Sequence record: OR352946.1
Reading direction: 5' to 3' (one strand)
Origin: Escherichia phage AV116
Length of the DNA: 64,000 bases
Every line of letters starts with the position of its first letter. Positions within the stretch are counted from its first letter, which is position 1. The position numbers were made by a program, and so were the translations under genes. This document shows positions 59,913 to 63,466 of this stretch, in pieces. The notes beneath the pieces are model-generated. The model had not been told where the DNA came from and did no database searches. It saw nothing but the letters and a program-made list of their open reading frames with translations.

Positions 59913-60905
59913 TTATTTCAGTAAAGTTACTTCGGAGATTTCTTCCCAACCATCTTTATCAGTTGAAATAAAATCTGCTACATAAAGAGCCGTACGTAAT
60001 GATACATTGCGAAGACGAGATACGTTAGCCTTCATCCAGGACAATGCTTTATACGTTTCTGCATCCGTCAGACCACGTTTCTGCATCATGTCAGTAGATA
60101 ATATTACATCTTCAACTCGAACCATAATCTCTTCATTAGAGTGTACTCCAAGGTCGAGATACACTGAACGAGATACTAAAGCTTGAAGGTGTGGAGCAAG
60201 TTTCGAACCGCGTTCTAACTCTTTATCGATATCAACGTTTGTAATGAAAACGATAGTACCTTCAAACTCAAATTCTTTATCAATACCCTTATCATCGAGA
60301 TAAGATGACGCAGTGCTCCAACAAACTTTGCGTTTATCTCCGGTATCTAATGCTGCTTTAAGAAGATTCAAGATGTCCATATCTGAGAATACGTCAACGT
60401 CGTCGATTAAGAGAACGCTGTCTGCATCACGGTTGAGCCAAAGTTGTTCGTAAAGGCCAATACCAGAGATTTTACCATTAATACTTTTGTATTTGATGAA
60501 ACCATTATCATTAGCATTATTAAGTGCTTTATCCAGAGAATACGTCTTACCAATACCTGCTGCACCTGAAATAATGAGTGAACGAATTTTGCCATCAATA
60601 ATGCCATTCGTCATCATGTTCATTACTTTAAAGCGTTTGTTGATACGAGTTTTCATATCTTCAGTGCTTTCAGCAACTGCAACTGGTGATGTCTCAACTC
60701 CTTCCATTACGATGTCTGATTTGAAGACCCATACTCCACGTTCAGAACCATCAATCATAACGAAAATTTTACCATCACCTAAGTGGGAACATTCAGGATT
60801 AAGCTTTGCCGGGAACCAGGTCTTTGTGGCAACATAAGAACCAGAGATTTCGTTATTACGATAGATACCTTTTTTGATTTGAACGTTGAACATTTTATTC
60901 TCCAA
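59913..60905 (-). CDS. P-loop ATPase (AAA-like)
   Basis: 330 aa; Walker A ISGAAGIGKTY, Walker B LLIDDVD. Confidence 0.6.
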   Translation of the reverse strand: MENKMFNVQIKKGIYRNNEISGSYVATKTWFPAKLNPECSHLGDGKIFVMIDGSERGVWVFKSDIVMEGVETSPVAVAESTEDMKTRINKRFKVMNMMTNGIIDGKIRSLIISGAAGIGKTYSLDKALNNANDNGFIKYKSINGKISGIGLYEQLWLNRDADSVLLIDDVDVFSDMDILNLLKAALDTGDKRKVCWSTASSYLDDKGIDKEFEFEGTIVFITNVDIDKELERGSKLAPHLQALVSRSVYLDLGVHSNEEIMVRVEDVILSTDMMQKRGLTDAETYKALSWMKANVSRLRNVSLRTALYVADFISTDKDGWEEISEVTLLK

Positions 60906-60963: not shown

Positions 60964-61182
60964 TTATTTGCGACGAGTTTTTTTGGTAAGAGGTTGAAAG
61001 AACACTGCTTTACCAGCAGGAGTCAAAGTGACTCGTAATGCATTACCGATTCCCAAGGATGCTTTAACCAGACCTTTAGATTTCAGTTCACCGAATGCTT
61101 GACGTTGGTCTGCATCACGAGTGTTAACCATAAGACCTTTATCACCAGCTTCACGAATCATTTCTAACATTTTGGTTTTCAT
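60964..61182 (-). CDS. hypothetical protein
   Basis: About 73 aa from ATG 61182; ORF-track start translates promoter-leader. Confidence 0.45.
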   Translation of the reverse strand: MKTKMLEMIREAGDKGLMVNTRDADQRQAFGELKSKGLVKASLGIGNALRVTLTPAGKAVFFQPLTKKTRRK

Positions 61183-61209
61183 TTTGTTCTCCTCTTGTTT
61201 TGATAGGTC

Positions 61210-61238
61210 TATAATAACATATCCTAAAAGCATGTACA
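61210..61238 (-). promoter_or_regulatory. early promoter (TGTACA-N17-TATAAT)
   Basis: Plus gataggtctataataacatatcctaaaagcatgtacac. Confidence 0.45.
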
Positions 61239-61277
61239 CTACTTTTTAAAAATATTTGACCCCCTAAAGGGCCCGAA

Positions 61278-61293
61278 GGCCCTTATCATTTAT
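61278..61293 (-). other. GC-rich UUCG-loop hairpin downstream of nucleotidyltransferase gene
   Basis: Plus agggccCGAAggccct. Confidence 0.35.
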
Positions 61294-62275
61294 AGTATGA
61301 ATTGTGGTTTTCTAAGTAGACTTGCTCAAGAAAGTCATCCCAGAAACTCATATCTACTTTTTGTTGCATACCGTTCTTAGCGGCTTGTTCCGATGCTTGT
61401 TCAACTTGGTCAACGATATCTTCTAGGAATTCTTGTACAGTTTTAAACGTATGTTTACCAAGCTTAACATCGAGAATAAATGGAGCATCCTGAAGTGGGT
61501 AAACCAGGTCGCCGGTTTTGTAAATTTCCAATAATTGAAGTCCACCACGACATGCATGACTCAATGCTTTCCAATCAATACCTTCATTGGCTTCAGCCTT
61601 ACGAGCACGTTCACCATAGTTCTCTTCCAGTTTAACCAGGATGGCATTGAACTCTTTGTTAGTTAACGTATCTTGGAATTTACGGTCCAACAGACTATAA
61701 AATGTTTGCTTACCTGTTTTCTCGTTTTCGGTTTCAACCCATGAAGCAAATTCACCTACAGGCAGAACATTCTTCATATGTGATAAACGAATTACTGCAC
61801 CATTATCAAAGTATTGTCCCCATTCATTAGAACGTTTAAGGGCTTGACGAAGAACAGCCAGTCGAGAACCCTTGACACCGTATTTAGAAGCTTGCTTACG
61901 GACATACCCTAAATAAGATTTCATGTTAGTAGTATAGAAACGAGACCTGTTATCTTGAATATACTTCCATACATCAGGCAAATCAGATTTAACTACTAGA
62001 CTTTGTGGAGTGTGAAGCATATCTAATGCGACGGTTTCACCATCCGCAGCTAGTTTAAAGAAATATTTGAGACTGTACAACTCATGGTCCACGTCGTCTT
62101 TTGTGTTCTTAGAAGATGTGTTATTCGTGTTCTTGCTCATGTGTTCTTTAACGTTACCGGTCAAAATATCACGAGCATGAGGGACATAAATTTCTTTAAA
62201 ATCGATGTCAGATTCAGGAGTAGACGTTCCATAAAGGTGGCTGCCAAAGTAGCCTTTCATAATTGTTTTCATCAT
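61286..62275 (-). CDS. Pol-beta-superfamily nucleotidyltransferase
   Basis: 329 aa; N-terminal GSHLYGTSTPESDIDF fits G-S-x(9-13)-D-x-D. Confidence 0.5.
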   Translation of the reverse strand: MMKTIMKGYFGSHLYGTSTPESDIDFKEIYVPHARDILTGNVKEHMSKNTNNTSSKNTKDDVDHELYSLKYFFKLAADGETVALDMLHTPQSLVVKSDLPDVWKYIQDNRSRFYTTNMKSYLGYVRKQASKYGVKGSRLAVLRQALKRSNEWGQYFDNGAVIRLSHMKNVLPVGEFASWVETENEKTGKQTFYSLLDRKFQDTLTNKEFNAILVKLEENYGERARKAEANEGIDWKALSHACRGGLQLLEIYKTGDLVYPLQDAPFILDVKLGKHTFKTVQEFLEDIVDQVEQASEQAAKNGMQQKVDMSFWDDFLEQVYLENHNSYYK

Positions 62276-62745
62276 TTAGCCTTATATTCAAGAGTAGGAC
62301 AGACTTTTTCTTTACGAGCTTTAAGGTATTCGCCTATTAATGATTTCTTACGTTCAATAGGCTCAAGTCCATTTTTAATTCGTTCTTGGTTTTGTGCAAT
62401 GAGCTCAATTTCTTTATAATATTTTCTGTCGTTATATTTGTCTAACAACCAAGACGGACCAATTACCAACCCGGTAGCAATAAAAGCCATGACTGCCACC
62501 ATTAAAATGCCTACACCAATTGAAGCTGGAACTAATGTCCATAGACTGCTAAAAACAAAGAATTTAGTTAAAATTTCCTGGCCAATGATTGTGACTGCTG
62601 CTAAAATAGCAAATCCAATAATTGAAACGGCCAATACCGGGATTAACGTTTTCCAAAAATAAGCACACAACGTTTTCGGCCGATTCCATGTACTATTGAA
62701 CGCGGCATAAATTTTAAAATGCCAAGAGTTTTCATTGATAATCAT
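62272..62745 (-). CDS. multi-pass membrane protein
   Basis: 157 aa; at least three TM segments; ATGA coupling to the nucleotidyltransferase gene. Confidence 0.5.
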   Translation of the reverse strand: MIINENSWHFKIYAAFNSTWNRPKTLCAYFWKTLIPVLAVSIIGFAILAAVTIIGQEILTKFFVFSSLWTLVPASIGVGILMVAVMAFIATGLVIGPSWLLDKYNDRKYYKEIELIAQNQERIKNGLEPIERKKSLIGEYLKARKEKVCPTLEYKAK

Positions 62746-62754
62746 AATAATTCC

Positions 62755-63285
62755 TTATTTCAAAGTCGGGATAATGGAATCAAGATAAGCTTTAAGAGCA
62801 ACTGCTTCATCTTTGTCTAATGTAATGATATGTTGACGAAGGTCATCAATTTGACGAATAACTACGACATCACCGTCTTCATAAGAAGGATTAACGCCTA
62901 GGACTGTTGTATAGTCAGGGCGGTCCTGATTTGTAATAAAAGCATTACGGCATTTAGCCCATTGAAGTTTGGCCTTTTTGGCTGTTTCAGATTCAATGAA
63001 TTCTTTCACCTTAGCGACAAATGTTTTCCAATTATTAATAGAAAAACATTCATCTTCGGTTTCGATATTAACCCCACTATAAAGTCCGTGATAAAAACGA
63101 ACTTGAAGGTCTTCATCAATGTTAATTACAGATGCATGACCAGGTGGATTGAGTTTCAAAATCTTGTCTAGTTCCATAGGAAGAATAGTAACAACATCAT
63201 CTTCTTGCGTCAGAACATACGCATAACCACGTTTTTCGATACATAAATCGCCAAACAACTCGGTTGTTTCAATTACAGTTTTCAT
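62755..63285 (-). CDS. hypothetical protein
   Basis: 176 aa from ATG 63285. Confidence 0.5.
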   Translation of the reverse strand: MKTVIETTELFGDLCIEKRGYAYVLTQEDDVVTILPMELDKILKLNPPGHASVINIDEDLQVRFYHGLYSGVNIETEDECFSINNWKTFVAKVKEFIESETAKKAKLQWAKCRNAFITNQDRPDYTTVLGVNPSYEDGDVVVIRQIDDLRQHIITLDKDEAVALKAYLDSIIPTLK

Positions 63286-63286
63286 A

Positions 63287-63466
63287 TTATTCACCAATTA
63301 AAGTTTCAACAAAATTCACCAAAGCATCCTGGCAAGCATCAACCTGATTTTCATAAAAGTCTCCGTTATCATTTACCGCGTGATAAGCTACAACATTCAA
63401 ATCTGAATCGGCTTCACGTAGGTCACGGATAAGGTCCATCAATTTATTAGCTTGTTCACGGGTCAT
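63287..63466 (-). CDS. hypothetical acidic protein (59 aa), not in ORF track
   Basis: MTREQANKLMDLIRDLREADSDLNVVAYH...; ATGA coupling upstream. Confidence 0.35.
   Translation of the reverse strand: MTREQANKLMDLIRDLREADSDLNVVAYHAVNDNGDFYENQVDACQDALVNFVETLIGE

Follow-up and report, generated by a model that had tools for sequence, protein, structure and literature searches.

The subject of this analysis is a pair of overlapping genes in a stretch of 64,000 nucleotides of Escherichia phage AV116 (sequence record OR352946.1; the whole stretch is referred to as the window), in which a membrane protein of 157 amino acids (aa) is encoded directly upstream of a nucleotidyltransferase (NTase) of 329 aa. 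As judged from its sequence, the NTase is the RB69-type ortholog of NrdC.11 of phage T4 and a member of the phage clade of the RlaP family (PF10127). It adds one more ortholog to a known family that already has a name and was characterised recently, and is not a new signalling enzyme. By homology to the RlaP enzymes of Pseudomonas, the NrdC.11 clade most likely tails RNA 3′-ends, and we infer for it a role against 'smart' ribotoxins. The membrane protein is regarded as a separate, phage-specific small inner-membrane protein that is co-transcribed with nrdC.11. The explanation as a whole, i.e. an NrdC.11-type RlaP acting in RNA 3′-end restoration with a separate membrane protein loosely tied to it, is put forward with moderate confidence.

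The window derives from an RB69-like T-even phage of the genus Mosigvirus, and the 2.4-kb stretch around the pair shares 99.3% identity with Escherichia phage AV115 and 96.5% with RB69. In the RB69 annotation the same locus contains nrdC.10/ORF102c, nrdC.11, a 'membrane protein' and mobD.1 in that order. T4 nrdC.11 holds the equivalent genome position, and the Tequatrovirus orthologs found by tblastn are about 78% identical to the AV116 enzyme. An initial annotation of the window, made from the letters alone, had recognised no T4 counterpart of the pair; since the enzyme corresponds to RB69 nrdC.11 and T4 carries nrdC.11 in the same place, this was wrong for the enzyme, whereas it held for the membrane gene, of which no trace was detected in the T4 region of 47-60.5 kb that was examined. 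The tblastn searches matched 1519 phage records for the enzyme, reaching to phages of Aeromonas and Acinetobacter, Vibrio phage KVP40 and one Erythrobacter phage, and 1125 phage records for the membrane protein, phages without nrdC.11 included; both genes are therefore real.

Comparison with Pfam assigned the enzyme to PF10127 (RlaP, 'RNA repair pathway DNA polymerase beta family') with 49.1 bits at a cut-off of 23 (E 7.7e-13), the match running from residue 7 to 137 of the enzyme and from position 23 to 144 of the 249-position profile. The same assignment is precomputed for all enzyme homologs listed, and the enzyme additionally matched phrog_388 'nucleotidyltransferase' (E 4e-126). The score for NTP_transf_2 was 14 bits only and thus under the cut-off of that family, and the searches of NCBIfam and PADLOC gave zero matches. 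The N-terminal GS-x10-DID motif named in the initial annotation was verified: the motif GSHLYGTSTPESDID (GS-x10-DID) occupies enzyme residues 11-25, and its catalytic positions are unchanged throughout an alignment of 123 homologs, in which G11, S12, D23 and D25 are invariant. The third acidic site is D85 in the AV116 enzyme and Glu in more than 90% of the 123 homologs. The Pol-beta signature hG[GS]-x9-13-DxD and the third carboxylate of the RlaP family are hence both present in the enzyme, and many residues of its C-terminal half are likewise conserved in the alignment. Many GenBank and UniRef entries (AV115, moha, mogra) carry the enzyme under the name 'thioredoxin'. A thioredoxin domain is absent from it, and as a member of PF10127 it is a nucleotidyltransferase; the label is apparently a case of name bleed from the gene symbol nrdC.11 and represents an annotation error worth correcting.

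Both genes are located on the minus strand, which had not been given before, and the proposed overlap of the 157-aa and 329-aa open reading frames (ORFs) by 4 nt was confirmed by the ORF table and by the ATGA at their junction. The NTase gene, the nrdC.11 ortholog (329 aa or 328 aa), extends over positions 61286-62275 and was assigned from the ORF table, the Pfam RlaP and phrog_388 matches, the RB69 annotation, the predicted structure and the invariant residues. The membrane gene, the ortholog of RB69ORF104c (157 aa, phrog_944), extends over positions 62272-62745 and was assigned from the ORF table, the phrog_944 match, two alignments of the family (A1 and A2), hydropathy and a structural model of low confidence. 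The ATGA overlap of the membrane-gene stop and the NTase start lies at 62272-62275 on the minus strand. The junction reads GCT AAA TGA TGA AAA, and the first ATG of the NTase (62275-62273) shares 4 nt with the upstream TGA stop. An alternative in-frame ATG at 62272-62270 would lead to an overlap of 1 nt (TGATG) and to a product of 328 aa, which is the length of many database entries for the NTase. The Shine-Dalgarno sequence AAGG of the NTase gene (62283-62280, minus strand) is spaced 7 nt from the second ATG, which is better than the 4 nt from the first. Since either start leaves an ATGA or a TGATG overlap, the arrangement is consistent with translational coupling.

The structure of the enzyme was predicted with AlphaFold2 (AF2) from the 123-sequence alignment. 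The resulting model (predicted local distance difference test, pLDDT, 89.5; predicted template modelling score, pTM, 0.78) consists of an N-terminal NTase domain and a mostly helical C-terminal domain with a small beta subdomain (177-201) and a terminal helix at 309-324. Comparison of the model with the PDB by Foldseek returned kanamycin nucleotidyltransferase, the NTase-like protein 3c18 and Hailong HalB, all at modest scores (E about 2e-3 to 1e-2, probability up to 1.0). The initial annotation had named a Pol-beta-type NTase and suggested structure prediction and fold comparison as a check; both, together with the PF10127 match, point to nucleotidyltransferases, and the predicted fold class, that of a Pol-beta-type nucleotidyltransferase, is supported by the model. 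The likeness to cGAS/DncV-like or CCA-adding enzymes that had also been suggested found no sequence or fold match in Pfam, PADLOC or Foldseek. Among the fold matches listed for the enzyme there were no cGAS/CD-NTase structures and no CCA-adding enzymes. The combination of a sequence or fold match with an adjacent nucleotide-sensing effector, by which a CD-NTase/Mab21 member is recognised, was not found, and the enzyme has no Pfam match to the CCA-adding/poly(A) polymerases with their PF01743-type head, neck and body. CutA and Cid1 were the sole RNA-tailing enzymes in the fold lists, with a Foldseek probability of at most 0.07. Sequence searches of the PDB with the whole enzyme, with the N-terminal domain and with the 123-sequence profile retrieved nothing relevant.

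The action of polynucleotide kinase/phosphatase (Pnk) and RNA ligase 1 (Rnl1) of T4 against PrrC is the textbook example of phage counter-defence by RNA repair. In T4-type phages the genes for both lie elsewhere in the genome. Both products are 5′-phosphate/3′-OH enzymes, and as they work on such ends they are chemically compatible with a 3′-OH tailing step. For the Pseudomonas enzymes PfRlaP and PaRlaP, a preprint of December 2025 described the addition of one or two nucleoside monophosphates (NMPs) to RNA 3′-OH ends, with deoxynucleoside monophosphates (dNMPs) being accepted too, while DNA and protein were not substrates; preference was shown for Mn2+ and, in a mimic of a cleaved tRNA, for the broken end (PMC12776372). 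With a tRNA short of one anticodon-loop nucleotide, aminoacylation was partly restored by RlaP acting before ligation, and RlaP was proposed by the authors as an antidote to 'smart' ribotoxins such as RloC (PMC12776372). T4 NrdC.11 was placed by them in the RlaP family, in the separate cluster 5 of their sequence similarity network (SSN) (PMC12776372). In jumbo phages RlaP is the commonest end-restoring NTase, and its distribution tracks that of RNA ligases (PMC7824862). The nrdC.11-mobD.3 block of T4 can be deleted in the laboratory (PMC9825161).

Given the RlaP data and the end chemistry of Pnk and Rnl1, template-independent restoration of one or two nucleotides before re-ligation is the best-supported mechanism. 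The metal site of the enzyme, formed by D23, D25 and D85, would add one or two nucleotides, untemplated, to the 3′-OH of broken RNA, for example of tRNA halves. The added nucleotides would replace those trimmed by RloC-type host anticodon nucleases, and T4-type Pnk and Rnl1 would then reseal a functional tRNA, so that the enzyme would serve as an accessory RNA-repair and counter-defence enzyme. If this is true, NrdC.11 would be the missing 'nucleotide-restoring' arm of T4 RNA repair against base-trimming nucleases such as RloC; the idea is already present in the literature, and the AV116 locus adds one ortholog to it. Of the signalling, RNA-modifying and anti-defence roles that had been considered for the pair, the RNA-modifying one is the best supported.

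Several observations weigh against RNA tailing by this enzyme. The NrdC.11 clade is distant from the assayed RlaPs, as it forms a separate SSN cluster at 1e-30 and matches the Pfam family with the N-terminal 137 residues only. HalB, the nearest solved fold, synthesises DNA and not RNA tails. Moreover, no RNA ligase or Pnk homologs were found in the 64-kb window, where the 'ligase-associated' context that defines RlaP is absent; the gene neighbours of the enzyme are nrdC.10, ORF102c, the membrane gene and mobD.1.

The membrane protein matched phrog_944 ('membrane protein') over its full length (E 2.5e-53) and had zero matches in Pfam, NCBIfam and PADLOC. An exhaustive profile search for its family yielded 1724 clusters at 50% identity; the best 150 representatives listed are without exception small proteins (50-243 aa) that stand alone, and the searches made in this analysis met the family exclusively in contigs of phages, viruses or metagenomes. 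Two conserved ends characterise the family in alignments A1 and A2. The N-terminal motif comprises S7 W8 H9 and, further on, L26 C27 x Y29 F30 W31, and the basic C-terminal motif is Y-L/I-K-A-R/K-K-x-K-x-C149-P150, with K142 A143 x K145 x K147 x C149 P150 in the AV116 protein. The residues of both motifs (SWH...LCxYFW and KA[RK]KxKxCP) are invariant or nearly so in both alignments, C27 and C149 being invariant and H9 near-invariant, and between the conserved ends lie a variable hydrophobic core and a variable charged linker. At least three transmembrane helices had been expected from the letters. The Kyte-Doolittle scan gave two strong peaks (centres 34-56 and 71-93) with a shoulder only between them, and the AF2 model, which is of low confidence (pLDDT 68, pTM 0.34), contains two long helices at 26-65 and 68-124. 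Basic residues flank both ends of the protein, which fits an N-in/C-in hairpin. Three or more helices are therefore not supported, and the simplest reading is a hairpin of two transmembrane segments (about 32-55 and 68-100), possibly with three segments, and both conserved ends are probably cytoplasmic.

The two genes are frequently linked and are nevertheless separable. Among the 119 membrane-family loci that were fetched first, 39 contain nrdC.11 at a distance of up to about 1.3 kb from the membrane gene, the 39 being T-even-type loci from IMG/VR and metagenomes, and a later scan added three more (L129, L130 and L145). A junction of -4 or -1 was scored directly in Mosigvirus-type loci and in T-even loci of about 68% identity, and in Tequatrovirus-type loci the nrdC.11 match begins where the membrane gene ends. 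Other genera carry unrelated inserted ORFs of 73, 136, 172-193 or 254 aa between the membrane gene and nrdC.11. One of these, in a Dhaka-like phage (L015 4459-5223), is a MobD homolog with 79% identity to T4 MobD, and in T4 itself mobD lies between mobD.1 and nrdC.11, in the place of the membrane gene (T4 locus L128 1130-1909). The published insertion site of mobD is nrdC.11/mobD.1. Due to the presence of a MobD homolog at this junction in the Dhaka-like phage and of mobD in T4, the junction of the membrane gene and nrdC.11 appears to be the mobD homing site. RB51 and RB32, which are close relatives of T4, encode the membrane protein with about 49% identity to that of AV116.

Each gene is also found alone. 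The membrane gene is missing from about one third of the nrdC.11-positive records (1519 versus 1125, the latter including phages that lack nrdC.11), as in KVP40 and the Erythrobacter phage, and it occurs without a nearby nrdC.11 in ICP1 (gp169), Serratia phage BF, Aeromonas phage AS-zj and dozens of uncultured phages. Since each occurs without the other, neither of the two proteins depends on its partner. The module that had been proposed for the pair is thus not obligate: T4 has mobD instead, relatives carry inserted genes, and distant phages carry single genes. The most fitting interpretation of the pair is syntenic conservation within the nrdC-tk accessory region, where any functional tie to RNA repair would be loose at most, and the coupling to the membrane protein is a conserved yet dispensable feature of T-even relatives.

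The surroundings of the membrane gene contain RNA-repair genes in several phage groups. Wherever the ORF directly behind the membrane gene could be scored, it belonged to one of 45 unrelated clusters. In Pakpunavirus phages of Pseudomonas (L003 and L037-L042, e.g. phage Kat) the membrane gene precedes an Rnl1-type RNA ligase, behind which a P-loop (PNK-like) kinase is encoded. The accessory island of these phages comprises a helix-turn-helix (HTH) protein, phrog_944, Rnl1, the P-loop kinase, a ribose-phosphate pyrophosphokinase and a nicotinamide phosphoribosyltransferase, and RNA-repair and nicotinamide adenine dinucleotide (NAD) salvage genes thus stand side by side in it. In an uncultured 210-kb contig (Ga0222646_100003; L077 4001-7020) the membrane gene is followed by an HAD_PNKP phosphatase, an AAA_33 kinase, a 128-aa ORF and Rnl1, which is a complete T4-type healing-and-sealing cassette with split Pnk and the membrane gene at its head. 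Four more lineages (L104/L152, L102, L142 and L164) have a gene for an RNA ligase or Pnk within 1-2.5 kb of the membrane gene, and in one further lineage an NrdC.11-like gene is 3.4 kb away.

A first census of 140 dereplicated neighbours contained AAA_33 (3), HAD_PNKP (2), RNA_lig_T4_1 (2) and Radical_SAM (2) as the sole recurrent Pfam families. A second census, independent of the first and covering 146 neighbours, again had an RNA ligase family, RNA_ligase (PF09414), among its few recurrent families, together with NAPRTase, DNA polymerase B, PD-(D/E)XK nuclease and Helicase_C. An RNA-repair gene lies within 4 kb of the membrane gene in 17 of 95 lineages; outside the T-even relatives, this is the case for about one eighth of those lineages whose flanks reach 4 kb or more. 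The reverse census, in which 80 Rnl1 loci from IMG/VR with 5-kb flanks were inspected, revealed a membrane-family member in a single locus and thereby lowers the estimate of a functional link. Two candidates were not added to the RNA-repair neighbours. The 343-aa protein downstream of the membrane gene in L026 and L080 (GDIDVLV motif, phrog label 'DNA polymerase') was considered as a second NTase and rejected, as hhalign against the NrdC.11 profile gave a probability of 0.2 and Pfam nothing. ICP1 gp170, which follows gp169, is a dNMP-kinase-like P-loop protein (phrog_139) and was not counted as RNA repair. The gp169 gene of ICP1 (L002 2923-4055), a divergent representative of the membrane family, overlaps the start of gp170, and a pairing of the gp169-gp170 type was found again in the metagenome loci L106-L108 and L110. 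In two soil-phage contigs (L021 899-1816 and L027 4466-5344) a conserved 292-305-aa protein of phrog_10932 without a Pfam match starts 3 nt after the membrane gene.

The membrane family is large and uncharacterised, and it stands beside RNA-repair genes in three unrelated phage groups. This recurrent loose proximity is the only mildly novel element of the analysis. It is suggestive only, and a functional link of the family to RNA repair is judged to be unlikely on balance. The more specific idea that the phrog_944 protein is an unrecognised companion of phage RNA-repair and anti-ribotoxin systems is likewise regarded as unlikely. It starts from the coupling to RlaP in T-even phages and from the position in front of Pnk/Rnl1 cassettes in Pakpunavirus and L077, and the two ends of the membrane protein, with C27, C149 and H9, might then serve as a platform for binding metal or RNA, by which the repair of cleaved tRNA at the inner membrane would be localised or regulated. 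If the link were functional, RNA repair would gain a membrane component, for which the present evidence is weak.

Closely related to this is the possibility that the pair represents a true two-component module, in which the membrane protein, as an anchor, a sensor or a blocker of incoming or membrane-associated ribotoxins, would work with whatever end-healing or end-sealing enzyme is encoded beside it. The pair is linked across 10 membrane-protein lineages of T-even relatives despite a membrane-protein identity of 25-35% and a plastic region; the overlap of 4 nt or 1 nt is conserved, and in one locus (L036) the gene order is reversed, yet the genes are still about 0.3 kb apart. The position of the membrane gene beside RNA-repair genes in Pakpunavirus, L077, L104/L152, L102, L142 and L164, i.e. 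in unrelated phages, and the recurrence of AAA_33, HAD_PNKP, RNA_lig_T4_1 and Radical_SAM in the first census would also fit such a module. However, T4 retains nrdC.11 with mobD replacing the membrane gene, and about one third of the nrdC.11-positive phage records do without the membrane gene. About 88% of the non-T-even lineages have no RNA-repair gene inside 4 kb, the downstream neighbours are spread over 45 unrelated clusters, and only 1 of the 80 Rnl1 loci has a membrane-family member within 5 kb. Moreover, RNA-repair genes are common in large phages and accessory genes cluster, so that part of the enrichment may be due to chance. A true module is therefore considered an unlikely explanation of the pair.

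The other two alternatives concern the product or the substrate of the NTase. In its operon of a transmembrane-protein gene followed by an NTase gene the pair resembles HalA-HalB, and in a Hailong- or CBASS-like signalling pair a nucleotide or oligonucleotide made by the NTase would gate or regulate the adjacent membrane channel or effector, unless the phage genes were a decoy of such a system. The likeness to HalB, however, is that of a generic NTase core only (15% identity, Foldseek template modelling scores, TM-scores, of 0.26-0.38) with no match at the sequence level; no PADLOC model matches either protein, and no CD-NTase or cGAS appears among the fold matches listed. The 157-aa membrane protein is widespread without any NTase, a distribution that is not compatible with a toxic effector dependent on an NTase as guard, and the enzyme belongs to PF10127, whose assayed members tail RNA. 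A signalling pair is accordingly regarded as very improbable. A non-RNA substrate, either a small molecule in the style of kanamycin or lincosamide NTases or a protein as in the MNT-type AMPylation of a host toxin, is brought into play by the top Foldseek matches to ANT(4')/KNTase, whose two-domain layout of NTase and helical parts is like that of the enzyme, and by the remoteness of the NrdC.11 clade from the assayed RlaPs. Against this, the enzyme falls in PF10127 and not in the antibiotic NTase or MNT families (NTP_transf_2 at 14 bits stays below the cut-off), the assayed RlaPs label neither protein nor DNA, and the fold matches have weak E-values (about 2e-3) and TM-scores of about 0.3. 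Modification of a non-RNA substrate thus appears improbable, and RNA 3′-end restoration by an NrdC.11-type RlaP is retained as the preferred explanation.

The remaining features of the locus, all on the minus strand, place the pair at the end of a transcription unit. Immediately upstream of the membrane gene lies the mobD.1 ortholog (62755-63297; Pfam T4_y05I_N, E 2e-40, and T4_y05I_C, E 1.5e-19, 'putative transcription factor'), which is probably co-transcribed with it. The Shine-Dalgarno sequence AAGGAA of the membrane gene (62751-62756), identified from the sequence and the ORF table, overlaps the TAA stop of this upstream mobD.1/y05I gene, and the genes are therefore read as a single polycistronic unit. 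Directly 3′ of the NTase stop, inspection of the sequence and a terminator scan identified a terminator-like GC-rich hairpin, AAGGGCC-UUCG-GGCCCUU, with a U-rich tract (61258-61284). With this hairpin behind the NTase gene and coupled genes upstream, the pair closes the polycistronic unit. Promoter-like matches in the region numbered 12 versus 14.2 expected from shuffles, i.e. without excess, and an internal promoter is not claimed. Further downstream lies the ortholog of RB69ORF102c (phrog_6001; 60964-61239, from the ORF table), between nrdC.10 and the hairpin that follows nrdC.11; its product has 72 aa in the RB69 annotation, and the GTG-started ORF found here has 91 aa. The nrdC.10 ortholog (59913-60905) encodes a 330-aa P-loop protein of phrog_1250, which is listed as of unknown function, with sub-threshold matches to the AAA_22, AAA_16 and STAND NTPase models and to the HTH_37 model.

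Compared with known systems, the AV116 pair differs in most respects from Hailong, in which HalA is a transmembrane ion channel and HalB synthesises oligo-dA. There is no sequence relationship between the two; HalB has about 217 aa versus 329 aa of the enzyme, and the AV116 membrane protein is much smaller than HalA. Hailong is a bacterial defence operon, whereas the AV116 genes are a phage gene pair separable in nature, and a HalB-family NTase, Tyr-primed oligo-dA synthesis and an obligate tetrameric HalA channel, which together make up a Hailong system, were not recognised in it. ANT(4') kanamycin nucleotidyltransferase and 3c18 belong to the same two-domain class of NTase plus helical domain as the predicted enzyme (Foldseek probability 0.98-0.99), with identities of 8-12%, TM-scores of about 0.3 and no family-level sequence match. 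Members of phrog_944, the family of the membrane protein, include RB69ORF104c, RB32ORF096c and ICP1 gp169, and the AV116 protein carries the N- and C-terminal motifs of the family.

The RlaP enzymes of P. fluorescens and P. aeruginosa share the Pfam family with the AV116 enzyme, and likewise the order of a Pol-beta NTase domain with three catalytic carboxylates and a helical domain behind it. They are located in SSN cluster 1a, in contrast to cluster 5 for NrdC.11, and the AV116 enzyme differs from them by the restriction of the Pfam match to the N-terminal part and by the extra beta subdomain (177-201) of the model. Unlike Pseudomonas rlaP, its gene is not located between rtcB and rtcA and has no ligase beside it. 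The closest known system is NrdC.11 of T4 and RB69 itself (phrog_388), which is orthologous and of equal length, shares the conserved residues and occupies the same nrdC.10-mobD.1 position as in AV116. Between the T4 and AV116 enzymes nothing substantive differs; the upstream neighbour in T4 is the homing endonuclease gene mobD and not the membrane gene.

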